NCBI GenBank assembly: GCA_030430565.1
Contig: JAUIKS010000008.1
Span: forward strand, 111,225 to 175,224
Direction of reading: 5' to 3'
DNA length: 64,000 nt
From: Polyangia bacterium
GTDB taxonomy: Bacteria; Myxococcota_A; Polyangia; Nannocystales; Nannocystaceae
Positions 11,642 to 56,271 of the stretch are shown in pieces (within the stretch, counting starts at the first letter, position 1; each line of letters begins with the position of its first letter). Both the position numbers and the translations under genes were made by a program. Under the pieces are notes generated by a model. That model was not told the origin of the DNA. It ran no database searches and worked only from the letters and a program-made list of their open reading frames with translations.

Positions 11642-11743
11642 CACCGATCGCTCGGCCGCCCGCGCCGGTGGTTGCACCTACAAATTCCTGCTCTGGCCGC
11701 GCCGAGTTGAGCGCCATGGCGTTCCGTGCGACCGTCCTCGCCT

Positions 11744-16964: not shown

Positions 16965-17087
16965 CGACGTCCGCGCTCGCGCGCGCCGCGACGAATCACA
17001 CATGTCTATGAGGTCATGTGTTATCGCGCTCGCGTACCATCCAGGTGTCGTCGTCATCGCGATGGCGCGCGGCGGGAGGTAGCGAAG

Positions 17088-26708: not shown

Positions 26709-26897
26709 GCGCCGACGCCACCCGCACCGCGGCTCGTCGCCCCCGAATGAGGACGCCGCCCCCCGGCGCGAGGCGCCCGCGCGGCGCGGAGATACGACAT
26801 GCCTTTAAAGACACATATTTGAAACACGCGGACGACGCGATCCGCTGTCCGCCCGCCGATAAAGCCGCTATCCTCGGGCCCTGAGTTGGAGGGTCGA

Positions 26898-29297
26898 ATG
26901 ACGCGTACTACCAGAGGGCGACTCCTTGGAAGCACCTCGCTCGCGCTCGGGCTCGTGGCCGCGCTGGCCGCGAGCGGCTGCAGCGGCGACGACGGCGCGG
27001 AGACCACCGCCGGGAGCGACTCGAGCCCCCAGGGCGAGACGACCGAGGGCCCCGATCCGAGCACCGGCACGAGCAGCGGCGGAACGACCGAGGACGAACC
27101 CGAGGAGACCACCGGCGAACCCGTCGAGTGCACGCCCACCCGCGAGTTCTTCGTCGAGGAGGTCTGGCCGCTGATGGGTCAGGTCTGCATCCAGTGCCAC
27201 GACCCGACGGGCGTCGCGGCCGAGCAGTTCGCCGACTTCCTGCTGCTGCCGCCGATCTACCCCGGCTTCATCGACGCCAACCTCGAGAACATCCGCGCGA
27301 TCCAGGGCTACCAGTACGACGGCGTGCCGCTGCTGCTCGCCAAGCCCGCCGGGCTCACCGACCACGGCGGCGGCGACATCCTCCCCGAGGAGAGCGAGGA
27401 GTACGCGGCCATCGTCGAGCTGCTCGCGCAGCTCGACGATCCGCTGCAGTGCCCGCCCCCGGAGTCCGACGCGAGCTTCGCCGACGTCGACATGCTCGAC
27501 GCCTACGAGACCCTGCGCAAGGCGGCGCTGCACCTCAACGGCCGCCTGCCGACCGAGGAGCAGCTCGGCCTCCTCGAGTTCGGCGGGGGCACCGACGAGG
27601 CGCTCGAGCTCGCGCTCGACTCGCTGCTCGCCGACCCGGCCTTCGAGACGCGGCTCGTCGAGCTGTTCAACGACGTGTTCCTGACGGACCAGTACATCGC
27701 CAACAACTCGGCGAGCCGCGCGGCCCAGAACCTCAACAACACGCAGTGGCCCAACCGCACGCCGTTCGTGCAGAACCAGCTGATGCTGCCGACCGATGAG
27801 CGGCGCCGGATCAACAAGGCGATCGCCCGCGAGCCGCTCGACCTGATCCGCTACATCGTCCGCTACGACCGGCCGTTCACCGAGATCCTGACCGCGACGT
27901 ACATGGTCTTCACGCCCGACACGGCGTGGTTCTACGACGTCGACATCGCCTTCGATAACCCCGACGATCCCGACGAGCTGCAGCCGGGCCTGCTGACCAC
28001 CGCGAACCTGCCCGACGTGCCCTGGCCGCACTCCGGCATCCTCAGCTCGCCGATGTGGCTCAACCGCTTCCCGACGTCGAGCACCAACCGCAACCGCCAC
28101 CGCTCGCGGATGATCTACCAGCACTTCCTGGCGACCAACGTGCTCGAGCTCGCCAGCCAGGCGATCGACCCCGAGGCGGGCTCCTCGATCTTCAACCCGA
28201 CGCGCAACAACCCGGTCTGCGCCAAGTGCCACCGGAGCATGGACCCGATCGCGGGCGCGTTCCAGATGTTCTCAGAGACAGACAACGAGCGCCTGCTCGC
28301 TGAGCCCGCCTGGCACGGGGAGATGTTCAGCCCCGGCTTCGGGACCGAGGAGATGCCGCCGACGGAATTCGCCAACGGTATCCAGTGGCTCGCGCAGCGC
28401 GTCGTCGAGGACCCGCGCTTCTCGCTCTCGATGGTCTTCCACGCCTACAAGGGCCTCACCGGCGCCGACGCGATCAAGTACCCCACCGACCCGGGCCAGC
28501 CGGGCTACGAGGGCCTGCAGATCGCGTGGGAGAACCAAGACGCGTTCTTCCGCAGCGTCGCCTCGGACTTCGAGCTCAGCAACTACAACATCAAGACGAT
28601 CTTCAAGGCGATCGTCATGAGCCCGTACTACCGCGCGCGCGACATGGCGAGCGCGCCCAACGAGGCGCGCGCCTACGAGCTGACGGACGTCGGCACCGCG
28701 CGCCTCTCCACGCCGGAGCTGCTCGCGCGCAAGATCGAGGCGACGGTCGGCGTCACCTGGGATGTCCTCCTGACGGACTACGTGATCCTCTACGGCGGCA
28801 TGGACTCGGACGAGATCACCAACCGCCTCCCCGACGTGAATCACATCATGACGCAGGTCGCGATGCGCATGGCCAACGAGGTCGCGTGCAAGGCGACGGC
28901 CTTCGACTTCACGAAGCCGCAGCCCGAGCGCCTGCTGTTCCCCCACGTCGAGCTCTCGGACACCCCGCTCGTCTCCGAGGACGCGATCAAGCAGAACATC
29001 CAGCACCTCTACGCGCGCCTGCTCGGCGAAGAGCTCGAGCTTGACGACCCCGACATCGAGCGCGCGTTCACGCTGTTCGCGGACACCCAGTTCGAGGGCG
29101 CCCTCAGCGTCGCCAGCGACGAGCCCGAGAGCGAGACCCTCGCGATCATCTCGACCTGCCGCGCGACGAAGGACCCCAACACGGGCGTGGACCTGCCCGA
29201 GGAGCAGCAGATCATCAACGACGGCACCTACACCGTCCGCGCCTGGATGGCCGTGCTCACCTACATGCTGATGGACTACCGGTTCCTGTACGAGTGA
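26898..29297 (+). CDS. Lipoprotein with N-terminal CxxCH (heme-c-type) motif; DUF1592/DUF1549-DUF1553-like family
   Basis: GGAGGG then ATG 26898. Signal LALGLVAALAASGCSGDD. CIQCHDP motif ~30 aa after an acidic Thr/Glu/Gly linker. Large C-terminal helical domain. Paired with a Tat-secreted partner gene 30 nt downstream. Family assignment is inference. Confidence 0.75.
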   Translation: MTRTTRGRLLGSTSLALGLVAALAASGCSGDDGAETTAGSDSSPQGETTEGPDPSTGTSSGGTTEDEPEETTGEPVECTPTREFFVEEVWPLMGQVCIQCHDPTGVAAEQFADFLLLPPIYPGFIDANLENIRAIQGYQYDGVPLLLAKPAGLTDHGGGDILPEESEEYAAIVELLAQLDDPLQCPPPESDASFADVDMLDAYETLRKAALHLNGRLPTEEQLGLLEFGGGTDEALELALDSLLADPAFETRLVELFNDVFLTDQYIANNSASRAAQNLNNTQWPNRTPFVQNQLMLPTDERRRINKAIAREPLDLIRYIVRYDRPFTEILTATYMVFTPDTAWFYDVDIAFDNPDDPDELQPGLLTTANLPDVPWPHSGILSSPMWLNRFPTSSTNRNRHRSRMIYQHFLATNVLELASQAIDPEAGSSIFNPTRNNPVCAKCHRSMDPIAGAFQMFSETDNERLLAEPAWHGEMFSPGFGTEEMPPTEFANGIQWLAQRVVEDPRFSLSMVFHAYKGLTGADAIKYPTDPGQPGYEGLQIAWENQDAFFRSVASDFELSNYNIKTIFKAIVMSPYYRARDMASAPNEARAYELTDVGTARLSTPELLARKIEATVGVTWDVLLTDYVILYGGMDSDEITNRLPDVNHIMTQVAMRMANEVACKATAFDFTKPQPERLLFPHVELSDTPLVSEDAIKQNIQHLYARLLGEELELDDPDIERAFTLFADTQFEGALSVASDEPESETLAIISTCRATKDPNTGVDLPEEQQIINDGTYTVRAWMAVLTYMLMDYRFLYE

Positions 29298-29327
29298 GCC
29301 GCCGGGACGAAGCGAAGGAGTAACAAG

Positions 29328-30665
29328 ATGGACCGCCGCAAATTTCTCAAGCTCGCCGCGATGACCGGGCTCTCGGTCGTCTCCCCGGTGTTCTCCCGTC
29401 CGGCCCGCGCCGCCGAGACCTACCCCGGCCCGTTCTACGTGCTGATCAGCGCGCGCGGGGCCTGGGACCCGACCTACTACTGTGACCCGAAGACGCCGGG
29501 CGCCTACAACAACGGCATCTACGCGAACCCGGCCACGGCCGGCAACATCGCGTACGCGCCGATCGGGATCACGCAGGCCGGCATCGGGCTCAACGACCCG
29601 ATGTCGATGGGCTTCGTGATGTCGAACCAGGCGTTCTTCAACGCGCACAGCGACAAGCTGCTCGTCGTCAACGGCATCAACATGGAGACGAACAATCATC
29701 TCCGTGGCGTGACGACGATCTGGAGCGGGCGCGGCTCGGAGGGCTACCCCTCGCTGGGCGCGCTGCTCGCCGCCGCCAAGGGTCCCGCGCTGCCGCTCGC
29801 CTTCATCAGCAGCGGGGGCTACGACGCGACCGAGAAGCTCGTGCCCGTCACGCGCCTCAGCAGCGTCACGCCCTTCCGCAAGATCGCGCAGCCGAACCGG
29901 ATCGTCCCGACCGACCCGGAGAACCTCGCGCAGTACCACATGTCCTCGACCTTCGACCGCATCCGCGCCGCGCAGGGCGAGCGCCTGCAGGCCCAGGTCG
30001 ACGACTTCAACCTCCCCGCGCTCCGGCAGTCCGGCAGCGCGCTGTACATGGCCCGCCAGGGCGACGACACGCTCGCCAGCGTGCCGCTGCCCGACACGCT
30101 GATCACGATGCCCACGGAGATGCGCGACCTCCAGCGCATGTGCCAGCAGATCCAGTTCGCGCTCGCGGCCTTCGAGGCCGGCCTCGCCGTCGCCGTCAAC
30201 GTCGAGCTGAGCGGCTTCGACACCCACGGCAACCACGACCGCGACCAGGTGCGCCAGCTCGCCAAGCTGAACTTCGGCATCGACTTCCTCATCGCCGAGG
30301 CCCAGGCCAAGGGCCTCGACGGCGACCTGATCACGATGGTCGGCTCGGACTTCGGGCGCGGCAAGGGCTACAACGGCCCCAACGCGGCCGACGGCAAGGA
30401 TCACTGGCCGGTCGGCAGCGCGATGTTCTTCGGCGCGGGCGTCACCGGCGACCGCGTCGTCGGCGGGACCGACGAGCTCGACCAGCTGCCCCGGCTCATC
30501 GACCCCGCGACCCTCGAGATCACGGACGACGAAGAGGCCGGCGTCGAGCTGAAGTGCGCCGACCTGCACGTCGCGCTGCGCGACTTCACCGGCGTCTCCG
30601 GCAGCGACGAGGCCGGCCGGTACCCGCTGCTCGGCGCCGAGCTCGGGAACCTCTTCACCGGCTGA
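29328..30665 (+). CDS. Tat-secreted DUF1501/DUF1552-like (sulfatase/phosphatase-fold-like) protein
   Basis: MDRRKFLKLAAMTGLSVVSPVFSRPARAAE twin-arginine signal. ...FYVLISARGAWDPTYYCDPK... Gene order directly after the CxxCH lipoprotein, as in known pairs. Confidence 0.75.
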   Translation: MDRRKFLKLAAMTGLSVVSPVFSRPARAAETYPGPFYVLISARGAWDPTYYCDPKTPGAYNNGIYANPATAGNIAYAPIGITQAGIGLNDPMSMGFVMSNQAFFNAHSDKLLVVNGINMETNNHLRGVTTIWSGRGSEGYPSLGALLAAAKGPALPLAFISSGGYDATEKLVPVTRLSSVTPFRKIAQPNRIVPTDPENLAQYHMSSTFDRIRAAQGERLQAQVDDFNLPALRQSGSALYMARQGDDTLASVPLPDTLITMPTEMRDLQRMCQQIQFALAAFEAGLAVAVNVELSGFDTHGNHDRDQVRQLAKLNFGIDFLIAEAQAKGLDGDLITMVGSDFGRGKGYNGPNAADGKDHWPVGSAMFFGAGVTGDRVVGGTDELDQLPRLIDPATLEITDDEEAGVELKCADLHVALRDFTGVSGSDEAGRYPLLGAELGNLFTG

Positions 30666-39774: not shown

Positions 39775-42700
39775 TCAGTCGGCCGACTCACGGAGCTCGC
39801 TGTCGCTGGGTCGCTCGCCCCCCGCGGCCTCGGACTCGCTCGCGTCCTCAGACGCGACGGGGGCGGGTAGGTCCGCAGATGGGGCGACCTCCGCCTCACC
39901 GTCTCCGCCGTCACTCGCCTCCTCCACGACCTCGGCGGCCGGGTCCGCGTGCTCAACGACCGCCGGCGCCGACGCTTCCTCAACTGCGCCCTCGACAGCT
40001 TCCCCCACGTCGGCGGCGCTCGCCTCCGTGGTTTCGACAGCCTCCGCGTCGGCCGGTGACGCGGCGGCCTCCTCGACCTGCGCTTCGGCGTTCTCCGCTG
40101 GCGAGGCTGCTTCAAGCTGGTCCTCGGGCGCCGCTTCGCCACCTGCCTCCGCCGACTCCCCGGCGACCTCCTCCGACATCACCTCGCCGGCTTCCTCGGG
40201 CTCCGAGATGGTCTCCTCCGCCGCTTCGCCGACCTCCTCCGCGGACCCCTGGGGCTCCTCGACGGCCTCCTCCGCCGCGTCGCTGGTCTCCGATGACGAC
40301 GCTTCGTCGGCCCCCTCGGGCTCCTCGACTGTCACCCTCGCGGTATCCACGGCCTCCTCCGGCGCCGCTTCAACGGGCCGCGACTCCTCCACCTCCGGGG
40401 CGGCTTCTGGACCGCTCACGACCTCGCCCGCGTCGACAACCTGCGCGGGGCCGTCGTCGCTCGCCGCGAAGCTCGTGAGCTCAACCTCCGCCGTCGCCGG
40501 ATCGGACACGGCCGCCTCGGCCCTCGCCAGCTTCGCGGCGAGCTCGAGGTCAAGGAGCCTCGCGCGACCGATCGTCGGATCGTCGCTCAGCAGGCGCTCG
40601 TAGGCCAGCGGATCGCCGCGCTCCAGCTCGCCCGGCTCGGCGTCGCCGAGCAGCTGACGGACGCCGCGTCGCGAGCCGTAGTAGTTGCCGCGGTTGTGGT
40701 CCGCGTCGGTGTTGCACTTGCGGACCAGCGAGCGCGAGATCGGCGGGAGGTTCAGCATGTCGAGCGCGCGCTCCCACAGCTGACCGAGGCGGTTCTGATC
40801 TGCCGGGTACTCGAGCAGGCTCGCCAGCAGCAGCAACAAGCCGCCGCGCTGCCCCGCGATCGTGTCGATGGGCTCACGCCCGCCGAGGTGCCCGAGGTCG
40901 ACCGCGCGCCACCAGGCGTCGGCGGCGATCAGCAGTCGCTTCAGCTCCTGCGGCGTGTGGCTGAGCCACGAGTTGTACATGACCTCCGCGACCAGGCCGC
41001 CCGGCGCCGCGGGATCCTTTAGATAGCGAACAACCGCCGGGAGCCGCCCGAGCTCCTGCGCCGGCCCGTCGCCGGTCGGCACGTCGCTGGGCGGGTGCGC
41101 GGGGCTGTAGAAGCCCGCGCCGCGAAACGCGTAGAAGCGCTCCGCCTCGCCGGGCAGCTCATCCCACAGCTCGCTGTACTGCGTCACCCGGTTGAGGCTC
41201 CCAGCCGACCAGCCGAGCCCGCGCGCGGCGGCGCCGCTGACCTGTGACGCCGCGACCCCGGGGTCGCGCGGGACAGCCCCCTCGCGCGTGTCCTCGGCGA
41301 TCTCGATCAGCGTGAAGTCGAGGAAGCCGTCGTAGTAATCGGCCTTGCCGTCGTGGTTGATGTCCTCGTAGCGCGCGACGACGCTGCGGTGCGCGGGCCC
41401 GACGAATTGCACGAAGCCCTCGACGCGGTTCTGCTTGTGATACCACTGGGCTTCGCGGATCCGCGCGTCGATCTGGACGAAGCTCTCGCCGGCGGCGAAG
41501 CCCTGCAGGATCGCGTGAAAGCAGTCGCAGGCCTCCGACTCGATGATCTTGTGGCTCCCGTCGGTGCGGAAGTAGGTCGAGTCCCACGACGAGTAGATGT
41601 CGGCCTCGGGGAACATCCGCGAGATCGCGAAGCGCGTGGTCAAGCCGGCGCACTGACAGTTGATCTGCAGCTTGTACCCGCGCTGCTCGACGGCGACGGT
41701 CGAGGCCGCCATGTCGTTCGAACCGAGGTTGGCGTGCCGGCTGATGCAGTGCCCGACGAAGTACGCCTCGCCCATCTCGAAGTTCTCGCTGCGCGGGCTC
41801 GTCGCGCGCAGCAGCAGCTGGATCTTCTGTCCCTTGGGCCCGGTAAAGGGCGCCTCGAGGGCCTTGTAGCCGCGGTAGCCCGGCGGCGCGGGGGCGTCCT
41901 CCGGGACCTCGATCTCGGCGAAGCTGTACTTGTCGCGCATGACCTCGTACTCGCCGGGGTGAAAGTCGTAAGCGCTCGCGAAGGCGAAGCGCCAGGTGTC
42001 GCCGAGCTCGTCGTAGGGCGGCGCCTCGCGCAGGTAGCCGCGCTGCAGCGCGACGACCCGCGCGCGGTCTTCCTCCGACAGCGCCGGGCCGCGCTGCGAG
42101 AGCAGCTGGATCGCGTGGGCGCGCAGCTCGGGCCGCGCCCCCGCCCCGACCTCCGCGTCGATCAGCGCGAAGATCATCGCCGCGGCCCGGTCCGCGAGCG
42201 CGCGAAACCCCGGGTCCTTCAGCGCCGTCGCGAGCACGTGCGAGAGCACCGTCAGGACCGCCGAGCGCAGCTGCACCGCGTCGACCCCGGCCGCCCGCGC
42301 CTCCTCGCGCGTCGGCGCGGCCGCCCGCGAGATCGCCTCGAGCTGTCCCAAGAGACCTTCGCCCTGCGCGGGCGAGAGCCGGTCGGCGCGGCGCGCCTGC
42401 TCGGGGTGAAAGGCGCTCGGCGGGAACAGGCACTCGAAGCTCGTCGTGCGTCGCGACGAGACCCAGCGCGCGGCGTTGACCATGACGTCGAGCGCGTCGA
42501 GCCCACGCGGCGCCGCGCCCTCCTCGCTCGCCGCGAGCGTGCCGTCGGCGCGCAGCAGCAGCGGCGCCGCGCCGAACATCCCCTCGGTCAGGTTGAGCGC
42601 GGGCGGCTCATCGCGCAGCAGCCCGCGCCCCGCGGCCTCGCGGAGGCGACAGCGCAGACCGGCGCGCCCTTCGAACTCAACCAGCACGCGTCGACCGATG

Positions 42701-42927
42701 GCGCCCTGCACGAGCGCGCGGCGGTCGTCACCGAGCGTGACGAGCGAGCGAAGATGGAACGAGCGCGCGCCGGCGCACAGCAGCTGCGCCCCCTCAGCGC
42801 CCCGGGCCTGCTCAAAGCTCGAGCCCGCCTCGTCGCCCGAGGCGACCACCTCGACGGAGATCGCGACTCGCTCGTCGTCACCGGCGCCGCGCGGAGCGGG
42901 CACCCAAAGCTTCACTTCGTTCGCCAT
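39775..42927 (-). CDS. Large hypothetical protein (1050 aa) with GHC motif and ~250-aa acidic Glu/Ala-rich C-terminal tail
   Basis: ATG 42927 preceded by GAAGGAAG. Central region with GEAYFVGHCISRHANLG...CQCAGLTTRF...ACDCFH. C-terminal low-complexity EEAVEEPQGSAEEVGEAAEETISEPEEAGE.... The antisense Pro/Arg-rich ORF 39678-40478 is junk. Confidence 0.65.
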   Translation of the reverse strand: MANEVKLWVPAPRGAGDDERVAISVEVVASGDEAGSSFEQARGAEGAQLLCAGARSFHLRSLVTLGDDRRALVQGAIGRRVLVEFEGRAGLRCRLREAAGRGLLRDEPPALNLTEGMFGAAPLLLRADGTLAASEEGAAPRGLDALDVMVNAARWVSSRRTTSFECLFPPSAFHPEQARRADRLSPAQGEGLLGQLEAISRAAAPTREEARAAGVDAVQLRSAVLTVLSHVLATALKDPGFRALADRAAAMIFALIDAEVGAGARPELRAHAIQLLSQRGPALSEEDRARVVALQRGYLREAPPYDELGDTWRFAFASAYDFHPGEYEVMRDKYSFAEIEVPEDAPAPPGYRGYKALEAPFTGPKGQKIQLLLRATSPRSENFEMGEAYFVGHCISRHANLGSNDMAASTVAVEQRGYKLQINCQCAGLTTRFAISRMFPEADIYSSWDSTYFRTDGSHKIIESEACDCFHAILQGFAAGESFVQIDARIREAQWYHKQNRVEGFVQFVGPAHRSVVARYEDINHDGKADYYDGFLDFTLIEIAEDTREGAVPRDPGVAASQVSGAAARGLGWSAGSLNRVTQYSELWDELPGEAERFYAFRGAGFYSPAHPPSDVPTGDGPAQELGRLPAVVRYLKDPAAPGGLVAEVMYNSWLSHTPQELKRLLIAADAWWRAVDLGHLGGREPIDTIAGQRGGLLLLLASLLEYPADQNRLGQLWERALDMLNLPPISRSLVRKCNTDADHNRGNYYGSRRGVRQLLGDAEPGELERGDPLAYERLLSDDPTIGRARLLDLELAAKLARAEAAVSDPATAEVELTSFAASDDGPAQVVDAGEVVSGPEAAPEVEESRPVEAAPEEAVDTARVTVEEPEGADEASSSETSDAAEEAVEEPQGSAEEVGEAAEETISEPEEAGEVMSEEVAGESAEAGGEAAPEDQLEAASPAENAEAQVEEAAASPADAEAVETTEASAADVGEAVEGAVEEASAPAVVEHADPAAEVVEEASDGGDGEAEVAPSADLPAPVASEDASESEAAGGERPSDSELRESAD

Positions 42928-43106
42928 ACTTCTTCCTTCGCTCAGGTCGGCGGCCCGTCCCCGCGATAGCGCTTCGAGGCGGCGGCGGGACCCTCCCGGC
43001 AGGTCGCGAAGCTATCACAACAGACTCGCGGAATCGGTCGTCATCGGGCAGCTCCGCGCGGGCAAAAAGATTGCGTCCTGCGCGATCGAGACGGCGGCGC
43101 GGAGCG

Positions 43107-47684: not shown

Positions 47685-48779
47685 TCAGGTCGCCTGCGCC
47701 TGGACGCCGGAGCCGCTCTCGCTCGGGTCGCTCAGCGTCGTCTCAGCTGGCGTAACGGTCATGTCGTCGAGTTGACCCTCGCCCGCGTCGAGCATGTCCG
47801 TCTCCATCGTGCGCGCGGCGATGTCGGGGTGCAGGAACCAAGCGCTCGCGGTGCGCTCCGAGAGCATGAAGTCGAACAACAGCCCGGCGACCTTCTCGCG
47901 ACCGCTCGGCGAGGGGTGAACGCCGTCCCAGATCAAGTCGTCGCGGGTGTAGCGGAGCCCGTTGTCCTTGCGAGGCACGACGCCGTCCGCCCAGAGGTAC
48001 GGGCCCCACTGGATCCACGGGCTGCGCACCTCGCCCTTCGAGGGGTCGTAGTTCAGCTCCGGCTTGCCCGCGATCTGATCACGCACGAGCCACTTCACGG
48101 CGAAGCCGCTCTCGTAGGCGTGCGGCTCCGGGCTGAGCGGGATCTCGGAGTAGCCGCCGTAGGCGCGGCTGGAGATGTACGCGACCGCGAGGTTCGGGTA
48201 GCGCTCCGCGAGGATGTGCATCGTGTTGACGAGGCAGCCGTAGAGCTTCTCGACCTCGGCCGGGAACGGCTTGTTCGGCTGCTTGACCGAGCTCTTGATC
48301 CAGACGGCCTGGACCTGCTCGTTGGTGAGGCCCGACTGCTTGACGCGCCGATCGACGGTCGGCCAGTAGTTCGAACGCAGCGTCTCCATGATCTCGGCGG
48401 ACTTACGCGGCTGCGCGCCGTTGACGACCACGAGCGCCGGGTTGACGGCTTCGAACTCCGAGACCAGGTGCATAAACACCTGAAACTCGCTGTTGGTGTT
48501 GGACAGCCCGATCCCGATCAAGCCGATCTTGCCGTCCTCAGCCGGCGCGCCGTCCGGGCCGCGCGGCACGACCTTCGCGATGCGCTCGAGCCCCGCCCCG
48601 TAGTGCTCCGGAGGCGGGTGATTCTGCCCTCCGGGATAGAGCCCGCCCTCCTCGCCGCAGTACTCAGCGCCCTTGAGCTCGAGTAGCGGCGAACAACCAA
48701 TAGATTCGCGTGGTGGATTCTTGCGCGCGAATTCCACCATGAACTTCGGCCGTCGCTTTGGTGCCCGGTTCAAGGTCAT
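47685..48779 (-). CDS. Hypothetical protein, possible SGNH/GDSL-like hydrolase fold
   Basis: IGLIGIGLSNTNSEF (GxSx block I-like) and DGVHPSPSG (DxxH block V-like). The 5' 100 nt lie in a local low-GC patch. Start 48779 (alternative 48740). Confidence 0.5.
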   Translation of the reverse strand: MTLNRAPKRRPKFMVEFARKNPPRESIGCSPLLELKGAEYCGEEGGLYPGGQNHPPPEHYGAGLERIAKVVPRGPDGAPAEDGKIGLIGIGLSNTNSEFQVFMHLVSEFEAVNPALVVVNGAQPRKSAEIMETLRSNYWPTVDRRVKQSGLTNEQVQAVWIKSSVKQPNKPFPAEVEKLYGCLVNTMHILAERYPNLAVAYISSRAYGGYSEIPLSPEPHAYESGFAVKWLVRDQIAGKPELNYDPSKGEVRSPWIQWGPYLWADGVVPRKDNGLRYTRDDLIWDGVHPSPSGREKVAGLLFDFMLSERTASAWFLHPDIAARTMETDMLDAGEGQLDDMTVTPAETTLSDPSESGSGVQAQAT

Positions 48780-48876
48780 CAGCGAGTCGCGGTAAACGAT
48801 ACCAGATGTACCAAGGGGCACGTGACGTGCCCCCGCGCATCTCGTACCCACTCAAGAGAGCGGCGCCGGCGTCGTC

Positions 48877-50031
48877 TCAGAGACCGAGCCACCGCGCGAT
48901 TATATTGCGCTGGATCTCAGATGTCCCGGAGTAAATGGTGCTGGCCACAGAATCGCGCAAGATCCTCTCTACGCCAGACTCCGACATGTACCCGTAGGCG
49001 CCCATGATCTGGACCGTGTCGAGCGCCGACTGGATCAGCGCCTCGCTGACGAAGACCTTCGTCATCGAGGCCTCCAAGGTGGCGTTTCGGCCCTGACTTA
49101 AACGCCAGGCGGCCCGATATGTGAGCAACCGCGCAGCCTCGAGCTTGATGCGCATATCGGCGACGCGATGAGATATCGCCTGATACTTGCCGATCTTGCT
49201 GCCGAACTGCGAGCGCGAACGCGCGTGCTCGACCGCCCGCGTCAGCAGCCGCTCGATCTGCCCGACGTGGCTGGCGAAGATGCCGACCCGCTCCCAGTCC
49301 ATCGAGCGCGTGAACTCAGCCGAGCCGGCGCCCTCGACCCCGAGCACCGCCGAGGCGGGCACGTAGGCCTCTTCGAAGACCAGCTCGCCCATGGGAGATG
49401 TCCGAAGGCCCATCTTCGACATCGAGCGCGTCGCGGTCACGCCCTTCGTGTCGGCGTCGACGAGGAAGGTCGTGATGCCGCCGTGGTAGCCCTTGTCCGG
49501 GTCCGTCACCGCGAACACGACGTAGAGATCGCCGATCGGCCCGTTGGTGCTGAAGGTCTTGGAGCCGGAGATCCGGTAGCCGTCGCCGTCACGAACCGCG
49601 CGCATCTTCATCGAGAACGCGTCTGAGCCGGACGAGGGCTCCGTCATCCCGTTGACCGCGATCAGGCTGCCGTCCGAGAGCCCCGGCAGGTAGCGGCGCC
49701 GCTGCTCCTCGTTGCCCGACTTCCAGATCGGGACGACGCAGGAGAACAGGTGCGCGCCGAGCGAGAACAGCAGGCCGCCGTCGTCGCAGTAGCGCCCGAG
49801 CGTCTCGAACGCCATGATCGCGCTGAGCGCGTCGAGACCCGCGCCGCCGTACTCGGTCGGCACCACGAGGCCGGGCAAGCCCATCTCGCCGCACTTCACC
49901 CACAGCTCCCGCGAGAAGGTCTGCTCGTGGTCTCGCGCGAGCTCGGAGCCGTCGTTGAGGTGCTCCTGACAAAAGCGCTTGATCGTGCGCTTGAGGTCTT
50001 TCTGCTCTCGGGTGGGGTTGAAGTCCATCAC
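48877..50031 (-). CDS. Acyl-CoA dehydrogenase-family flavoprotein (probable acyl-/aminoacyl-carrier-protein oxidase)
   Basis: Full ACAD fold; GMTEPSSGSDAF, catalytic-base region IYSGTSEIQRNIIARWLGL. Third gene of the ACP - adenylation - ACAD string on the minus strand. Confidence 0.85.
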   Translation of the reverse strand: MMDFNPTREQKDLKRTIKRFCQEHLNDGSELARDHEQTFSRELWVKCGEMGLPGLVVPTEYGGAGLDALSAIMAFETLGRYCDDGGLLFSLGAHLFSCVVPIWKSGNEEQRRRYLPGLSDGSLIAVNGMTEPSSGSDAFSMKMRAVRDGDGYRISGSKTFSTNGPIGDLYVVFAVTDPDKGYHGGITTFLVDADTKGVTATRSMSKMGLRTSPMGELVFEEAYVPASAVLGVEGAGSAEFTRSMDWERVGIFASHVGQIERLLTRAVEHARSRSQFGSKIGKYQAISHRVADMRIKLEAARLLTYRAAWRLSQGRNATLEASMTKVFVSEALIQSALDTVQIMGAYGYMSESGVERILRDSVASTIYSGTSEIQRNIIARWLGL

Positions 50032-50077
50032 AGACCCTCTCGCCGTCAGAGGCTACACGCTCGGCGTCCTTTGGGCA

Positions 50078-51676
50078 TTAGCCGCGACGCTTCAACGCTT
50101 GATAGTCGACCTTGTCGGTCGAGGTCTTGGGCAAGCGCTCCAGCACCTCCACGCGGTCCGGGAGCATGTAGAGCGGCACGTGCTCGGCGCAGAATTGCTT
50201 GATTGCGAGCAGCGTGAGTGACGCCGAGGGGTCCCCGGCGACGATGAAGGCCTTGATCCGCACGCCGGCGTCCTCGCTCGGGAACGCGAGCACGGCCGCC
50301 TCCGCGATGTGCTCGTGGCGGTAGAGCGCCGACTCGATCTCGCCGAGCTCGACCCGGTACCCGCGCCGCTTGACCATTCGGTCACGTCGTCCGATGAACA
50401 CGAGCGCGCCCGCGGCGTCCGCCGAGGCGATGTCGCCCGTTCGATACCAGCCGTCGTCGGTAAACGCGGCAGATGTACGTTCAGGCAGGTTCCAGTAGCC
50501 CTGGGTGACACCGGGACCCTTGACCTGCACCTCTCCCTCCTCGCCCGCGGCGACCGGCCGGCCGTCCGCGTCGGCGAGGCGGACGTCGAGATGCGAGCAC
50601 GCGCGCCCGATCGGGTACGGCTGCTCGCGCGCCGCCGGCACCTCCGCGGGGATCTCGTGATACGTGCAGACGTTGGTCTCGGTCGGCCCGTAGAGGTTGT
50701 AGTAGCGCGCCTGCGGCCAGAGAGCCTTGAGCGCGCGCAGGTGCTTGACCGGGAACACCTCGCCGGCGAACAGCACCATCCGCAGCGCGCTGAAGTCGTA
50801 GCGCTTGAGGCGTCCGTAGTGCGCGAGCATCGTGAGGATCGACGGCGCCGAGTACCACACGGTGATCCCGTGGCGCGAGATCCACTGTCCGAGCGCGCGC
50901 GGCTCTCGCGACGCGAGCGGCTCCACGAGCACCAGCGTCGCGCCCGCGCTGAGGCAGACGTAGAGGTCGAGGATCGAGAGGTCGAAGTGCAGCGGCGCGT
51001 GGGACGAGAACTTGTCCTCGGGGACCGGCTGGACCAGCGCGCGCGCCCACTCGACGAAGCTCACCGCGTTCTCGTGGGTGAGCATCACGCCCTTGGGGCG
51101 CCCCGTGGATCCCGAGGTGTAGAGGATGTACGCGAGCTCGTCGGGCTCGCTCCGCTCGCTCGTCGCGTCCTCGCCCGCGCGCGCGTGGCCCTCGAGCGCG
51201 GCCCGCAGGCCGTCGCCGCCGCCGACCGCGTCGATCGTGATGAACACCGGCTCCGCGCCGCCCGCCTCCCCGCCCCCAGCAGCTCGCAGGGCCGCGAGCT
51301 CGGCGCGCAGCGCCGGCTCGAGCGAGGCCTCGACGAACACGGCCGCGAGCTCGCAGTCGAACGCGATGTACGCGCCCCTCGACATCGGCGCGCCGGGATC
51401 GATCGGGACGTACGCGGCGCCCGCCCGCAGGATCCCGAGCAGCGTCGCCACCGCGTCGATCGACTTTGAGACGCACAAGCCGACGCGCGCGCCCCGGCCG
51501 ATCCGGAGCGCGCGCAATACGTCACATGTTTTTTTAGACAGATCTTCGAGCTCGCCGTACGTCACGCGACGATCGACGCGCGGCTCCTCGATCGCGATCC
51601 GCTCGGAGAACGCCGCGGCGGCCTGCAGGACGAGGCCGTGGAGCGACTCTCGCTTCCACCGGGGGGCCTCCATCAC
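50078..51676 (-). CDS. Stand-alone adenylation enzyme (ANL superfamily, amino-acid-activating type)
   Basis: A3 YTSGSTGRPKGV, A4 HFDLSI (Asp retained = alpha-amino acid substrate), A5 NLYGPTETNV, A7 YRTGD, A10 LPKTSTDKVDYQAL. 532 aa, no C/T domains. Confidence 0.85.
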   Translation of the reverse strand: MMEAPRWKRESLHGLVLQAAAAFSERIAIEEPRVDRRVTYGELEDLSKKTCDVLRALRIGRGARVGLCVSKSIDAVATLLGILRAGAAYVPIDPGAPMSRGAYIAFDCELAAVFVEASLEPALRAELAALRAAGGGEAGGAEPVFITIDAVGGGDGLRAALEGHARAGEDATSERSEPDELAYILYTSGSTGRPKGVMLTHENAVSFVEWARALVQPVPEDKFSSHAPLHFDLSILDLYVCLSAGATLVLVEPLASREPRALGQWISRHGITVWYSAPSILTMLAHYGRLKRYDFSALRMVLFAGEVFPVKHLRALKALWPQARYYNLYGPTETNVCTYHEIPAEVPAAREQPYPIGRACSHLDVRLADADGRPVAAGEEGEVQVKGPGVTQGYWNLPERTSAAFTDDGWYRTGDIASADAAGALVFIGRRDRMVKRRGYRVELGEIESALYRHEHIAEAAVLAFPSEDAGVRIKAFIVAGDPSASLTLLAIKQFCAEHVPLYMLPDRVEVLERLPKTSTDKVDYQALKRRG

Positions 51677-51683
51677 CGCGTCC

Positions 51684-51965
51684 TCAGGCGTCGCTTGGGT
51701 CGCGCTTCTTCACGACGAAGCTCGCTATCCGCGAGATCGTGCTGAGGTGCGTCACGAGCACGTCCTCGGGCAGGATCTCGATGTCGTACTCGTCCTCGAG
51801 CCACGAGAACATCTTCAAGGCGGCCATCGAGTCGAGCGTGCCGCTCTCGACCAGCGAGGTCTCGTCTGTCAGCTTCGACGCGTCCTCGCCGTCGAAGAAC
51901 TGCTCGAGGATGTACTTTCGGACTTCCAGCCTTACCTCATCCATCTTCGCCGAACTCTCGTCCAT
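51684..51965 (-). CDS. Stand-alone carrier protein (PCP/ACP)
   Basis: GGTGGAG then ATG 51965. Ppant site ESGTLDSMAALKMFSWLEDEY. 8 nt upstream of the adenylation gene. Confidence 0.8.
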   Translation of the reverse strand: MDESSAKMDEVRLEVRKYILEQFFDGEDASKLTDETSLVESGTLDSMAALKMFSWLEDEYDIEILPEDVLVTHLSTISRIASFVVKKRDPSDA

Positions 51966-52362
51966 GTCGTCTGCTCCACCCGCCCGGTTGGTCATCTAGC
52001 GGCGCCAGGCGTTTACGCGGTTCAATGATTATGTGTCGCGGATTGACGTTTGCAAAGGTTCGATACCGCTGCGCACGATTCCACGATGCTCAGCTGCGCG
52101 CCTCCGCGAGGCGCGATCCGGTGCCCGCTCCGCGCGCCCGCGCCGGCGCGTCGCCGCGGCGCTCGATTTCCGCGTGACGAGTTCGCGCGGCGGACAGGTG
52201 CACACACAACCGAGGACCTCGGGCCGCGCCGCGCGGCGCCGCGAAGGTGTCCGTTCGTTCACGCTCAACCTTCCGCTAGCTGCGACCGCTTGATCTTGCT
52301 ACCATCGCCACCTGTCGCGCAGCTTCGCTCGCGCGACGGCTGGGCGAAGGGCTCGCGCAACC

Positions 52363-53346
52363 ATGACCCAAAGTCTCGATCGGATCGACGTGCACGCCCA
52401 CGGATTCCCGGAGGCCTACCTTCGGAGCCTGTGCAAGCGATACCCGCAGAAGGCGTCGCTGCAAGAGCCCTGCGACGGGAAGCCGCTGATCGCGTACTGG
52501 TCACGAGCGCCGATCCCCGCCTGGGACACGACGATCCGCCTCCGCGAGATGGAGCGCGATCGCGTGGTCACCGAGGTCCTCTCGGCGCCGACGATCTACA
52601 CGCACCTCGACGACGAGAGCCCGAGCTACTGCCGGATGCTCAACGACTTCCAGGCCGAGCTCGCGCGCGCGTCCCCGGGGCGATTTCGCTCCCTGCTTCA
52701 CCTGCCCGTGAACTCGATCCCCGCGTCGCTCGAGGAGCTCGCGCGCTGGAAGGGGCGCTCCGAGGCCGCCGGCGTCGTGTTCGGCTCCAACATGGGCGGC
52801 GTGTACCCAGGCGACACCTCGCTCCTGCCGATCTGGGAGGCCATCGACAAGCTCTCGATGCCGGTCCTGGTCCACCCGGTCACGCCCCCCGCGCTCTACG
52901 GGCCGGTCGTGCCGACCATCCTCCAGTTCCCGCTGGACTCCGTGACGGCGGCCGCGTCGATCCTCTACTCAGGCCTGTTCGAGCGCTTCCCCGGCCTGAA
53001 GATCATCATTCCGCACCTCGGCGGCTTCCTCCCCTTCGTCCGTACCCGCCTCGACATGGCCGCAGACATCGCGGGCTTTCCCCCGGGGCAGGGCCAAGAC
53101 CTCCCGAAGAAGCCGAGCGCCTACGTCGACCGTTTCTACTTTGATATGGCGCAGGGCTTTCATCGCGAGTCCTTCGACTGCTGCCGCTCGGTCGCGGGGA
53201 TCGACCACATCCTCTACGGCACGGACCACTTCTTCCTCGACGATCCGTGGCGTCCGCGGCTCAACGCGTTCATCGACGATCTCCCGCTGAGCATCCGTGA
53301 CCGCATCGCGCTGTTGAGCGGCAACGCCGAGCGCATCTTGCGGTGA
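52363..53346 (+). CDS. Amidohydrolase-2 family (ACMSD-type) metal-dependent decarboxylase/hydrolase
   Basis: IDVHAHGFPEAY (HxH), IIPHLGG, ILYGTDHFF (D-H). 327 aa. Divergent from the carrier-protein operon across a ~400-bp intergenic region. Confidence 0.8.
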   Translation: MTQSLDRIDVHAHGFPEAYLRSLCKRYPQKASLQEPCDGKPLIAYWSRAPIPAWDTTIRLREMERDRVVTEVLSAPTIYTHLDDESPSYCRMLNDFQAELARASPGRFRSLLHLPVNSIPASLEELARWKGRSEAAGVVFGSNMGGVYPGDTSLLPIWEAIDKLSMPVLVHPVTPPALYGPVVPTILQFPLDSVTAAASILYSGLFERFPGLKIIIPHLGGFLPFVRTRLDMAADIAGFPPGQGQDLPKKPSAYVDRFYFDMAQGFHRESFDCCRSVAGIDHILYGTDHFFLDDPWRPRLNAFIDDLPLSIRDRIALLSGNAERILR

Positions 53347-53436
53347 GGACCCCCGCGCGCGAGCGCCGGTCGATTGATCGCGCTCGCCGGCGACTGGTAG
53401 GCTCGCCTGCGCCCGCGTCCTGGCGCGAGAGAGAAC

Positions 53437-55152
53437 ATGTACGAGGTGACGGAGCCGGATGTCCTCGTCGTCGGCGCGGGGCCGACCGGCCTCACGCTCG
53501 CGTGCGAGCTCGCCCGACACGGCGTGAGCTGTCGGCTGATCGAGCGCGCGAGCACACCCGCCGAGCCGCGCGCCGCCGCGGAGCTGCTGCCGCGCACGCA
53601 GGAGGTCCTCGCCGCGATCGGCGTGCTCGAGCGCGTCGAGGAGCGAGCGCAGGCGCTCCGCTCCATGAACGTCTACGCCGTCGACGGCGCCCGCCGGCTC
53701 GCGCGCCTCGAGTACGCGCAGCTCGACGCTCCCTTCGCGCGGGTCCTCGGCGCCACCCCCAGCGCGCTGACGACGGCGCTCCGCGATCGCGCGCGCGAGC
53801 TCGGCGTCGAGCTCGAGTGTGGTGTTGAGCTGATGGAGCTAGAGCCCGGCGCCGACGACGAGCCGACCCGCGCCCGGCTGCGCCACGCTACCGATCAGGA
53901 TCAGCAGCAGCGCGAAGAGCACGCGCGCGCGCGCTGGGTCGTCGGCTGTGACGGCGCGCAGAGCGTGGTCCGCCGCGCGCTGAACATCCCCTTCGACGCG
54001 CTCTCGACCGCCGAGCAGTACTGGCTGGCGGATGTTGAGCTCGAGTGGGAGATGCCGGAGGACGACCAGTACATCTTCCTGGGCGAGCGCGGCTTCGTCT
54101 TGCTGGTGTCGCTGCCGGGCGAGCGTCGCTATCAGCTCGTGCTCGAGCAACCATCCGCGCAGGAGTCCGCGCCGACCCTCGCCGAGCTGCGTGAGCAATT
54201 CTGTCGCAGAGTTCATATTCGCGGCGAGCTGCACAGCGCCCGCTGGATCGCGCGAGAGCGCGTCCACCCGCGGCTCGCCTCGCGCTTCCGCGCCGGCCCC
54301 GTGTTTCTCGCAGGCGACGCCGCCCACCGGCACAGCCCGCTGAACGGGCACGGGCTCAACGCCGGGATCCAAGACGTGCACAACCTCGCGTGGAAGCTGG
54401 GCCTCGTGAAGCGCGGGCTCGCCCGCCCGGCGCTGCTCGAGACCTACGACGAAGAGCGCCGCGACGCCGGGCTGCATATCTCGCGGGGAGATCCGGATCG
54501 AACCAGCCGCGCGCTCCGCCTGCGCGGATCGCTCGCGCGCGGGATCCGAGACGCGCTCACGCCGGTGCTCGCCAGCGTCGAGTCGATCAACCGCCGCGTC
54601 GCGCGAGCGTTCAGCGAATTCGAGGTCAGCTACCGCGGGAGCTCGCTGGTCGAGGAGCACCACACGCCGCTGCTCAGCGCGCGCCTGACCCACAGCGACC
54701 GCAGCGAGCAGGCCAGCCTCGCCGATCGCCGCGAGTTCGCCGCGGCGCCGGCGGCCGGCGACCGCGCCCCGCACGTGGTGTTCCGCGACCGCGAGGGCGC
54801 GTCGCGGCAGCTGTTCGATCTGACCTCTAGTACATGTCACACCCTGCTGCTCTTCGACGGTCACGCGCCCACCCCGGCCGGGTACCGAAACCTCGCCGAG
54901 ATCGCGAAGGCGACCCGTGACCAGTACGGCGATCTCGTGCGCGCCCACGTCGTGATCCCGGCCGCGCGCGCGCCGACCGAGCTCGCGTGGGACGGGCCGA
55001 TCATCCTGGACCACGACGGCGAGCTCCACCGACGCTTCGGCGCGCGCGCCGAGTGTCAGTACCTGATCCGCCCCGACCATCACGTCGCGTTCCGCAGCCA
55101 GCCCGCGAGTCGCCACCTGCTGGTCGAGTACCTCCGGCGCGTGTTGATCTAG
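53437..55152 (+). CDS. Class A FAD-dependent aromatic monooxygenase (PheA/TfdB-like)
   Basis: VLVVGAGPTGLTLACELARHGVSCRLIER (GxGxxG), RWVVGCDGAQSVVRRAL, FLAGDAAHRHSPLNGHGLNAGIQDVHNLAWKL. No halogenase WxWxIP motifs seen. Confidence 0.85.
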   Translation: MYEVTEPDVLVVGAGPTGLTLACELARHGVSCRLIERASTPAEPRAAAELLPRTQEVLAAIGVLERVEERAQALRSMNVYAVDGARRLARLEYAQLDAPFARVLGATPSALTTALRDRARELGVELECGVELMELEPGADDEPTRARLRHATDQDQQQREEHARARWVVGCDGAQSVVRRALNIPFDALSTAEQYWLADVELEWEMPEDDQYIFLGERGFVLLVSLPGERRYQLVLEQPSAQESAPTLAELREQFCRRVHIRGELHSARWIARERVHPRLASRFRAGPVFLAGDAAHRHSPLNGHGLNAGIQDVHNLAWKLGLVKRGLARPALLETYDEERRDAGLHISRGDPDRTSRALRLRGSLARGIRDALTPVLASVESINRRVARAFSEFEVSYRGSSLVEEHHTPLLSARLTHSDRSEQASLADRREFAAAPAAGDRAPHVVFRDREGASRQLFDLTSSTCHTLLLFDGHAPTPAGYRNLAEIAKATRDQYGDLVRAHVVIPAARAPTELAWDGPIILDHDGELHRRFGARAECQYLIRPDHHVAFRSQPASRHLLVEYLRRVLI

Positions 55153-55311
55153 CCCCCGTGGCTCTCCACGTCTCGACGCGAGATCGGCGAGCGGGAACCG
55201 TTTGAAGAGTGAACGAGGCGCACGAACCGACACGCTCGGCGCGATGAGAGGGGCCCGCGGTAGCTCGTGCGCTCGTCGTTCGCAGCAGAACCCTGGTGCG
55301 TGCCATGGCGG

Positions 55312-56271
55312 CTAGCTGCGCTCGGGCCCTGAGACGGGGACCGAGAGCACGTCCGCGAGCGCCAGCGGGTGGTCGTCGATCATCGGCAGCGTCTCGACGC
55401 AGCGGATCCGGAGCGACGCGGCGGGCGGCTGGCGCAGCGCGAGCGCGACGCGGTGCGCCGGGTCTGGGCGCAGCAGGCGAAAGCTCCACTCGCCCGGGCG
55501 CTCGTCCGCGAGCGTCCCAGCGAACGCGATGCGGATCCCCTCTGGGCCGACGGGCGCGCGCCCGTCCCCCAGCTTGTAGACGAAGTCCCGCAGCGGGATC
55601 GCGAGCCCCATCCCGCGCGCCTTGATGTACGCCTCTTTCAGCGTCCAGTAGTCAAAGAAGCGTGACTTCGCCAGCGCGTCGCCGTGGACGCCGGCGAAGG
55701 CGAGCAGCTCCTCGACCTCAGCCGGCGCGAAGAAGTGCTCGGCGATGTTGAGGCCGCTGGTCCGCCGGGTGATGTCCTCGACGTCGACGCCGAGATCCCC
55801 GCGGCCGACGAGCATGACCACGAGACCATCCGTGTGCGAGAGGTTAAATCGCACCGGACCCAGACCGTGGGACAGGTCGAGATCCGGTCGGCCGTGCTCA
55901 TTAAACGCGAAGCGCAGCGCCGCCGGCGAGCACGGCGCGCCGGCCCCGGCGACGTAGCGCGCGAGCGTGACCCGCACGAGCGCGCGCGCGACGAGGAACA
56001 GATGGCGATGCCGCGCGAACAAGAACCGCCCGTGACGCTCGCGCTCCGTCTCGTTCAGCACGGACGCGTAGGCCTCTAGTAGATCGGGGTCGATCGCGGC
56101 GGCGGGGCGCGCCCACCAGAGGTGCAGCTCGCCTCGCTCGGGGGGCGTGAGCGCGTCCGTGGCGCGAGCTCGGGGGTCGACATCGCTGTGCACGCGCGGT
56201 GATCGTTGCACGCGCGGAGAGCCCCAGGTCAAGCGCTCGCGACGCTTGCCAGGAGCGCGATCGCGGGTCAC
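55312..56271 (-). CDS. Sfp-type 4'-phosphopantetheinyl transferase
   Basis: FNLSHTDGLVVMLVGRGDLGVDVE and WTLKEAYIKARG. GTG start at 56271 is tentative; the real start may be internal. Confidence 0.75.
   Translation of the reverse strand: MTRDRAPGKRRERLTWGSPRVQRSPRVHSDVDPRARATDALTPPERGELHLWWARPAAAIDPDLLEAYASVLNETERERHGRFLFARHRHLFLVARALVRVTLARYVAGAGAPCSPAALRFAFNEHGRPDLDLSHGLGPVRFNLSHTDGLVVMLVGRGDLGVDVEDITRRTSGLNIAEHFFAPAEVEELLAFAGVHGDALAKSRFFDYWTLKEAYIKARGMGLAIPLRDFVYKLGDGRAPVGPEGIRIAFAGTLADERPGEWSFRLLRPDPAHRVALALRQPPAASLRIRCVETLPMIDDHPLALADVLSVPVSGPERS

Follow-up and report, generated by a model that had tools for sequence, protein, structure and literature searches.

Many antibiotics, and marine halopyrroles as well, are built from pyrroles that derive from proline. 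In PltF/PltL/PltE (pyoluteorin), RedM/O/W, PigI/G/A and CloN4/5/3, these pyrroles start from a stand-alone proline adenylation (A) enzyme, a carrier protein and a flavoprotein of the acyl-CoA dehydrogenase (ACAD) fold. Triads of the PltF/L/E type classically supply starter units to assembly lines, i.e., polyketide synthases (PKS) or nonribosomal peptide synthetases (NRPS), and to our knowledge almost all proline-to-pyrrole cassettes feed such lines. PMC10849742 gives an overview of the usual thiotemplated logic of pyrrole formation. Here, we report a triad of the same composition, with the same ACAD signature, in a 64,000-nucleotide stretch of a Nannocystaceae genome (Polyangia bacterium, assembly GCA_030430565.1, contig JAUIKS010000008.1, positions 111,225 to 175,224); this whole stretch is called the window below. 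The known triads feed a PKS/NRPS or an acyltransferase of the same cluster, whereas the window has no condensation, ketosynthase or acyltransferase domain in its 64 kb and holds a predicted ACMSD-type decarboxylase of the Amidohydro_2 family instead. The triad itself is of an already well-known kind; what is new is its pairing with an ACMSD-type decarboxylase in a syntenic setting free of halogenase and assembly line. Whether the locus encodes an assembly-line-independent proline-to-pyrrole pathway with release, metal-dependent decarboxylation and optional hydroxylation is, in our judgement, an evenly balanced question.

The window has a G+C content of ~70%, and its genes are most like those of Myxococcota metagenome-assembled genomes (MAGs). 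Briefly, genes were called by third-position GC (GC3) bias and cross-checked against an independent Logan assembly (16 kb) of the same sequence, in which a carrier-protein gene of equal size is also called. An earlier note on this DNA, made from its letters, had described seven genes, and all seven are present at the coordinates it gave according to Pfam scans, gene calls and a fold search. They are listed here with two promoter-like matches.

51684-51965, minus strand: carrier protein (peptidyl carrier protein, PCP), stand-alone, 93 aa; Pfam PP-binding, 1.4e-6
50078-51673/51676, minus strand: predicted L-proline adenylation enzyme, stand-alone, PltF-like, 531 aa; AMP-binding, 4e-86, and AMP-binding_C
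48877-50028/50031, minus strand: predicted prolyl-carrier-protein dehydrogenase, ACAD fold, 383 aa; three ACAD Pfam domains, E 3e-45 to 3e-24
52363-53346, plus strand: Amidohydro_2 metalloenzyme, ACMSD family, 327 aa; PF04909, 102 bits against a gathering cut-off of 26.4
53437-55152, plus strand: class A aromatic monooxygenase dependent on flavin adenine dinucleotide (FAD), 571 aa; FAD_binding_3 (PF01494), 1e-66, and Rng_hyd_C
55312-56193 (reading frame open to 56271), minus strand: Sfp-type phosphopantetheinyl transferase (PPTase), 293 aa as called; ACPS, 2.4e-14, and AASDHPPT_N
47685-48779 (reading frame to 48851), minus strand: predicted SGNH-fold hydrolase, 364 aa from the MTLNR start; Foldseek
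52028-52056, minus strand: sigma-70-like promoter match between the divergent carrier-protein and Amidohydro_2 genes, upstream of the former; consensus match, 9/12 positions
48899-48927, minus strand: sigma-70-like promoter match in the 3' terminal part of the ACAD gene and immediately upstream of the SGNH gene; consensus match

The triad is nearly contiguous, as had been read from the letters, with 7-10 nt between the carrier-protein and A genes and 46 nt between the A and ACAD genes. The Amidohydro_2 and monooxygenase genes are divergent from it, the latter starting 90 nt downstream of the former on the same strand, and Pfam upholds the earlier assignment of this pair as an ACMSD-type Amidohydro_2 protein and a class A FAD monooxygenase. 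The PPTase and SGNH genes, both on the minus strand, flank the group. Please note that the promoter-like sites are consensus matches only: the 9 kb contain three sigma-70 matches, where shuffled sequences lead one to expect 0.5, and two overlapping ones lie upstream of the carrier-protein gene (52028-52056).

Predicted loading and oxidation of proline

The A enzyme passes the TIGR01733 amino-acid adenylation model with 365 bits against a cut-off of 317, and its best single-domain relative in the PDB is PltF (6o6e; L-proline-[L-prolyl-carrier protein] ligase), which aligns over the full length with E 6.6e-102. The Stachelhaus positions were set from the FDxS, xLPP, AG and YGPTE landmarks in the PltF alignment, with the code placed by what we take to be the GrsA positional numbering. 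The 10-residue specificity code obtained in this way is DLLYLALVCK, and the pocket is identical to that of PltF at the 9/9 code positions visible in the HMMER alignment; in 7thn, the second solved prolyl ligase, the code reads DLFYIAWVC. A literature search on the window code found nothing. The equivalent of Asp235 is located at 50981-50983, in the motif APLHFDLSILD, and that of Lys517 at 50111-50113. The stand-alone amino-acid adenylation enzyme with HFDLSI and an alpha-amino-binding Asp, as described in the earlier note, is confirmed, and the comparison of codes that it had proposed comes out for proline. There is strong sequence evidence that this enzyme would load proline.

The carrier protein has its phosphopantetheine-attachment residue, Ser46, at 51828-51830 in GTLDSM. 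Its best NCBIfam match is the OlsHI ornithine-lipid acyl carrier protein (ACP) with 76 bits against a cut-off of 130, and this assignment was rejected, as the GH3-type ligase and alpha/beta-hydrolase used in the OlsHI pathway (PMC12971839) are not present. The PPTase is Sfp-type, as had been predicted, with two lobes (AASDHPPT_N and ACPS) and a WTLKEA motif at residue 183. Its best NCBIfam match, HetI, stays below the HetI equivalog cut-off, and the gene is kept at the same position in four related myxobacterial loci (L005, L007, L008 and L010, described below).

The four best solved relatives of the window ACAD are AnaB (4irn; E 4e-105, 46% identity), PigA (5zw0 and 6af6; E 1.5e-88) and chain B of 6cxt (E 3.7e-88), which is the Bmp3 structure (PMC10849742). 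Among NCBIfam models, PigA (429 bits) and RedW (420 bits) stand apart from any other ACAD family (<=291 bits), and both scores are under the equivalog cut-offs of 500 and 650, respectively; by these models the protein is a member of the prolyl-dehydrogenase clade and an equivalog of neither PigA nor RedW. The catalytic Glu246 lies in MDWER (codon 49291-49293), and Ser367, in IYSGTSE, replaces the canonical MCAD-type Glu. The resulting signature, M-x-W-E-(R/K) together with (Y/F)SGT for the canonical YEG, is common to the window ACAD, AnaB, PigA, Bmp3 and the cassette ACADs found elsewhere; the ordinary ACADs encoded beside other Amidohydro_2 genes carry L-x-x-G-R and Y(D/E)G instead. Counted by offset along the alignment with 4irn, the Glu of WER is equivalent to Glu244 of AnaB; a conserved catalytic Glu is indispensable to both AnaB and Bmp3 (PMC10849742). 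In the tree, the window ACAD groups with AnaB, PigA, Bmp3 and the cassette ACADs, apart from ordinary ACADs, and is not specifically sister to AnaB. The phylogeny asked for in the earlier note thus places the protein with the prolyl dehydrogenases, and the sequence comparisons argue strongly that it belongs to the prolyl-S-carrier dehydrogenase class.

The reading most at odds with these data is one without any proline, in which the A enzyme would be a ligase of fatty acids or aryl acids and the ACAD would serve in ordinary beta-oxidation; the earlier note had named this grouping as the one that would undo its proposal. It could draw on the generic AMP-binding and ACAD Pfam matches and on the many NCBIfam acyl-CoA ligase subfamilies that match at lower scores. 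The A enzyme, however, passes TIGR01733, holds both Asp235 and Lys517 and has the PltF code, and the ACAD is without the canonical catalytic Glu and carries the prolyl-dehydrogenase signature. Code and signature effectively refute the proline-free reading, to which we give next to no credence. The amino-acid loading and oxidation logic of the PltF/PltL/PltE type that had been proposed is borne out by the code, the carrier Ser and the ACAD clade.

How far the oxidation goes is a separate question. AnaB, the single best solved relative, stops at two electrons, and if the window ACAD did the same, the product would be a pyrroline-carboxyl thioester (dehydroproline). We consider this very improbable. 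The tree gives no specific AnaB sisterhood, and the PigA and RedW models score equally well; related cassettes with the same Amidohydro_2 clade carry pyrrole halogenases; and an Amidohydro_2 decarboxylase requires an electron-rich aromatic acid. A four-electron outcome with a pyrrolyl product is the one we infer, because the sister cassettes carry halogenases of the PltA/Bmp2 type, which act on pyrrolyl-S-carrier proteins.

An ACMSD-family enzyme beside proline cassettes

The window Amidohydro_2 protein falls in a narrow group of ~60 sequences with 50-78% identity, below which similarity drops sharply. Searched against the PDB, the group profile finds ACMSD first (E 4.6e-45), then LigW, gamma-resorcylate decarboxylase, IDCase, 2,3-dihydroxybenzoate decarboxylase and salicylate decarboxylase. 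Down to ~E 1e-19 the solved relatives are decarboxylases or uncharacterised proteins, and hydratases and hydrolases appear from E 1e-18 and weaker. Throughout the clade, the metal-binding and catalytic residues H11, H13, H171, H218 and D288 are unchanged; they align with H9, H11, H177, H228 and D294 of ACMSD, in what is presumably the standard ACMSD residue numbering. R59 and R229, which match both substrate arginines of ACMSD, are conserved.

A profile scan over one genome per species and the JGI metagenomes gave 125 loci, which were then searched with the window proteins. Clade members of 44-60% identity adjoin A, ACAD and carrier genes, with halogenase genes in sister loci, as follows.

L012:2549-13383, Nostocaceae MAG: two Trp_halogenase-family genes, ACAD, A enzyme, PCP, pyridoxal phosphate enzyme, methyltransferase and alpha/beta-hydrolase, all on one strand
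L013:3203-12747, deltaproteobacterial MAG: halogenase, ACAD, A enzyme and PCP divergent from Amidohydro_2; GMC oxidoreductase and cytochrome c protein
L014:3321-14239, second deltaproteobacterial MAG: A enzyme, ACAD, Bmp1-like fusion of ACP and alpha/beta-hydrolase, halogenase
L057:5705-11838, soil contig: halogenase, ACAD, A enzyme, PCP, Amidohydro_2 and alpha/beta-hydrolase, in this order
L059, L063, L064 and L100, short metagenome contigs: fragments of the same cassette arrangement

The adjacency of Amidohydro_2 gene and proline cassette has at least seven separate occurrences, each in a different lineage or contig, and the genes often form one co-directional operon with gaps <150 nt (L012, L014, L057); a halogenase is present in L012, L013, L014 and L057. 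The A enzymes of the cassettes elsewhere have pyrrole-type proline codes (DLLYLALVCK, DILYLALVCK, DLFYIAFVCK, DLFYVAYVCK). In a neighbor-joining tree, cassette-linked members occupy deep branches of the Amidohydro_2 clade. In the sister clade (34-43% identity, mostly Binatia and Acidobacteria), a proline cassette accompanies 0 of ~65 members. No PKS/NRPS domain was found in the Pfam-scanned larger flanking open reading frames (ORFs) of L012-L014 and L057, with flanks of up to ~10 kb. The association is recurrent and phylogenetically broad, not universal. What is new here is that, in other phyla, (halo)pyrrole cassettes free of an assembly line repeatedly have this Amidohydro_2 gene at their side, and the modules of L012, L013, L014 and L057 are probably uncharacterised halopyrrole pathways.

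Family membership and the recurrent neighbourhood together suggest that the Amidohydro_2 protein is a putative pyrrole-2-carboxylate decarboxylase. Literature searches found no Amidohydro_2 protein in pyrrole clusters; their coverage is incomplete, and the negative outcome is no more than absence of evidence. In the portion of the literature available to us, the pyrrole-2-carboxylate decarboxylase described in detail is HudA/PA0254, a prenylated flavin mononucleotide (prFMN)/UbiD protein. Neither a UbiD nor a UbiX domain is found in the window ORFs scanned, and the candidate decarboxylase is of a different fold.

The window itself carries no halogenase detectable by tblastn with the L012 and L014 enzymes, and no WxWxIP motif. 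The sole weak match of these queries is the FAD-binding N-terminus of the monooxygenase (E 9e-4, 33 bits). The locus is, in this respect, a halogenase-free relative of the compact Bmp-like halopyrrole cassettes that hold the same Amidohydro_2 clade.

Synteny, accessory enzymes and the rest of the window

Of the loci found, the closest to the window is L007, from the MAG Myxococcales bacterium HK-STAS-MYXO-17, with 74-95% amino acid identity over ten compared genes. The gene order PPTase, (monooxygenase), Amidohydro_2, and, divergently, PCP, A enzyme, ACAD and SGNH hydrolase is common to five loci (L004, L005/L009, L007, L008 and L010, from Nannocystaceae, Polyangia and Myxococcales MAGs). This group lies between ferrochelatase/EVE genes at one end and genes for a Na/Ala symporter, DciA, PilZ and a class IV aminotransferase at the other. 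No PKS/NRPS is among the genes listed for the five loci. In L008:7821-9341 (Nannocystaceae MAG ABC2.134), the A gene loses its frame for ~170 codons in its middle, and the aligned frame contains a stop; the A gene of L004, a close relative, keeps its frame as far as it is covered. This frame loss and the missing monooxygenase in L008 reflect either assembly error or cassette decay.

In the window, Pfam finds no condensation, ketosynthase or acyltransferase domain in the coding-filtered ORFs (positions 1-64000), and a six-frame motif scan of the 64 kb finds no HHxxxDG, DTACSS or GHSxG. The only adenylation core motif in the six-frame scan is that of the A enzyme. The two scans agree with the statement, made in the earlier note from the letters, that condensation and ketosynthase domains are lacking in the window.

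The monooxygenase has the fingerprints GAGPTG at residue 13, DGAQS at 172 and GDAAH at 293, and a C-terminal thioredoxin-like domain; its PDB neighbours are rifampin monooxygenase, pentachlorophenol monooxygenase and PgaE. It is probably an optional accessory tailoring enzyme. The idea of a disguised halogenase was dropped, there being no Trp_halogenase Pfam match and no WxWxIP motif in it; a Bmp5-like single-component halogenase it could be.

The putative SGNH-like hydrolase of the earlier note is predicted from its modelled fold. The protein has no Pfam, NCBIfam or PDB sequence match, and its family profile likewise finds nothing significant in the PDB. An AlphaFold model built with 24 homologues has a mean predicted local distance difference test (pLDDT) of 88, and its top Foldseek matches are SGNH esterases and acyltransferases only (PatB, CE3, PlaA, SsfX3), with probability 1.0 but TM-scores of only 0.36-0.62. 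Residues S80, D272 and H275 are invariant. The likely true start of the gene is at 48779, or at 48740. Family members with at least 50% identity occur across Acidobacteria, Planctomycetes, Sumerlaeota and others, where they have signal peptides; the Nannocystaceae copies beside the ACAD gene are without one, and their GAQGGQ block is changed to GAQPRKSA. These copies are probably cytoplasmic because they start directly at the catalytic domain. On account of family size and carbohydrate contexts, the protein was dropped as a defining cluster member; going by its modelled fold, it is kept as a candidate that might act as thioesterase, and whether it belongs to the pathway is uncertain.

The Pfam content elsewhere in the window consists of kinases, a RecD2 helicase, a vault-like protein, transporters and housekeeping genes, and an Rfam scan of the whole window matched nothing. 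The following ORFs stand out.

30752-34885, minus strand: 1377-aa ORF with MVP_shoulder (9e-28) and a weak, sub-threshold Vault_3 match; by sequence, it resembles the eukaryotic major vault protein and may be its bacterial homologue
20244-26708, plus strand: 2154-aa Ser/Thr kinase with AAA_16 (STAND) and GAF domains
26823-30665, plus strand: PSCyt3/DUF1588-DUF1501 gene pair after the 2154-aa kinase, more typical of Planctomycetes
16965-19793, plus strand: 942 aa, large ORF with strong coding GC3 bias and no Pfam match
39775-43011, minus strand: 1078 aa, large ORF with strong coding GC3 bias and no Pfam match
9815-11677, minus strand: 620 aa, strong GC3 bias, no Pfam match
11711-13165, plus strand: 484 aa, strong GC3 bias, no Pfam match

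A proposed pathway and the known systems

In the pathway that we propose, the PPTase would prime the 93-aa carrier protein, and the PltF-like A enzyme, on strong sequence evidence, would load it with L-proline. The flavoprotein of the AnaB/PigA/Bmp3 type would then oxidise prolyl-S-PCP, most likely by four electrons, to pyrrolyl-2-carboxyl-S-PCP. The thioester would be hydrolysed, for which the adjacent, probably cytoplasmic SGNH-fold hydrolase might be a candidate, and the free pyrrole-2-carboxylate would be decarboxylated by the Amidohydro_2 enzyme, as suggested by family chemistry and recurrent neighbourhood. The co-oriented class A monooxygenase might add an optional hydroxyl group, either to the acid or to the pyrrole, and the pathway would end in a small pyrrole or hydroxypyrrole that is diffusible or volatile. 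A small free pyrrole is probable as the product because the triad pairs with a decarboxylase that recurs beside stand-alone pyrrole cassettes, and the order of release and then decarboxylation fits the separate alpha/beta-hydrolase of L012 and L057 and the fusion of ACP and thioesterase (TE) of L014. Hydrolytic release of a thiotemplated pyrrole acid has a precedent in ChmF (PMC10849742). The earlier note had left two outcomes side by side, transfer of the activated unit to a distant assembly line and release; the comparative evidence favours release.

Several findings weigh against this pathway. The lack of PKS/NRPS genes covers 47 kb to one side of the group and, past the PPTase gene, ~8 kb, and neither Pfam scans nor tblastn found a thioesterase of the alpha/beta-hydrolase type in the window, where the SGNH protein is the only candidate. 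Both points suit the reading in which the triad serves in trans as a starter-unit supplier to a PKS/NRPS elsewhere in the genome, with the Amidohydro_2 enzyme and the monooxygenase as tailoring enzymes or bystanders. Starter supply is the classical use of such triads, and the adjacent Sfp-type PPTase would also serve assembly lines. We nevertheless regard the supply reading as unlikely: condensation, ketosynthase and acyltransferase domains are absent over the whole of these two flanks, the same gene set sits in the same housekeeping surroundings in five loci with no PKS/NRPS among the genes listed, and the Amidohydro_2 clade recurs with compact cassettes that own a thioesterase and show no assembly line among the flanking ORFs scanned.

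A second group of such findings concerns the decarboxylase and its partner. Two derived Amidohydro_2 sub-clades (46-58% identity) are without a proline cassette, so that the clade is not restricted to pyrrole chemistry; these loci are as follows.

L055:10001-13704: cassette-free Amidohydro_2 locus
L056:8848-13154: cassette-free Amidohydro_2 locus
L011:1120-2952: cassette-free Amidohydro_2 locus
L074:8385-12750: cassette-free Amidohydro_2 locus

The neighbours of the cassette-free members, i.e., two family III CoA-transferases, an enoyl-CoA hydratase, luciferase-like or nitronate/FMO-type monooxygenases and alpha/beta-hydrolases, suggest a second, CoA-linked use of the enzyme. The monooxygenase comes from a very large generic family (homologues at ~40% identity, with no informative names) and is 74% identical in L007, ~35% in L005, L009 and L010, and absent in L008. 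If the locus were two unrelated units, i.e., a cassette that makes pyrrole-2-carboxylate from proline as free or carrier-bound acid and a decarboxylase/hydroxylase pair for some other aromatic acid, both observations would find a place, as would the divergent transcription, and the pair of gamma-resorcylate decarboxylase and resorcinol hydroxylase would be its parallel. Against such a division stands the adjacency of clade and cassette in at least seven lineages or contigs, often in one operon, and its absence from the sister clade; we hold the division to be improbable.

Three further points belong to the same side. The retrieved literature on pyrrole-2-carboxylate decarboxylases, as far as its incomplete coverage and partial texts go, names prFMN/UbiD enzymes only and no Amidohydro_2 protein. 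The synteny spans housekeeping genes and by itself sets no cluster borders. The SGNH family has >2000 homologues, which outside Nannocystaceae are secreted and stand among carbohydrate-active and esterase genes, and the SGNH gene may be transcribed on its own, given the sigma-70-like site just upstream.

Beyond the assembly-line-independent pathway in this locus, a wider claim may be put forward, tentatively and with more doubt than confidence. Nannocystaceae, and in a halogenated form some cyanobacteria and soil bacteria, would make free pyrrole or hydroxypyrrole from proline with no PKS/NRPS. The terminal step would be carried out by a so far unrecognised family of pyrrole-2-carboxylate decarboxylases of the Amidohydro_2/ACMSD fold, mechanistically unrelated both to prFMN/UbiD enzymes and to the bromination-driven decarboxylation of Bmp. 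A chromosomal position kept this strictly in Nannocystaceae would suggest that the product has a physiological role, acting as a signal or volatile, and is not a strain-specific antibiotic.

If this is true, thiotemplated pyrrole pathways would gain a new accessory enzyme family, i.e., a cofactor-simple metal decarboxylase of pyrrole acids with possible use in biocatalytic (de)carboxylation of heteroaromatics. The combination of A enzyme, ACAD, carrier protein and Amidohydro_2 clade, halogenase and thioesterase being optional, would serve as a mining signature for free (halo)pyrroles that is usable in cyanobacteria, Myxococcota and soil metagenomes, and marine and soil Nannocystaceae would share a conserved, possibly signalling pyrrole metabolite. 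If it fails, the locus is one more orphan starter-unit cassette. The pairing of the triad with the Amidohydro_2 clade is a concrete and testable lead for genome mining.

Of the known systems, AnaB/AnaC/AnaD, which make the anatoxin-a starter, follow the same proline-loading logic, and AnaB is the best solved relative of the window ACAD; AnaB, however, performs a two-electron oxidation and its unit is passed to a PKS, which the window does not have. With ACMSD, gamma-resorcylate decarboxylase, LigW and IDCase, the window Amidohydro_2 enzyme shares the metal ligands (HxH, H, D), the catalytic His and the two substrate arginines. The difference lies in the substrate, which is predicted here to be pyrrole-2-carboxylate, an activity that the literature retrieved does not assign to the family. 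ChmF-J of chalkophomycin (PMC10849742) likewise build a carrier-bound, proline-derived pyrrole, employ a further flavoenzyme and hydrolyse the thioester to free pyrrole-2-carboxylic acid. There, the extra flavoenzyme is ACAD-like (ChmG), the hydrolase is of the alpha/beta type and the acid is reloaded on an NRPS (PMC10849742). The window instead has a class A monooxygenase as its further flavoenzyme and, in addition, a predicted decarboxylase.

Bmp1-Bmp4, which make tetrabromopyrrole and pentabromopseudilin in marine Pseudoalteromonas, are assembly-line-independent in the same manner as proposed here: the pyrrole acid is released by hydrolysis and loses its carboxyl group. The Bmp3 structure is one of the four in the PDB that match the window ACAD best, and L014, L012 and L057 hold Bmp-like halogenase, thioesterase, A enzyme and ACAD genes. 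In the Bmp system, decarboxylation is driven by the fourth bromination. The window, in contrast, is without a halogenase and without an ACP-TE fusion, and a dedicated Amidohydro_2 enzyme is predicted to carry out the decarboxylation.

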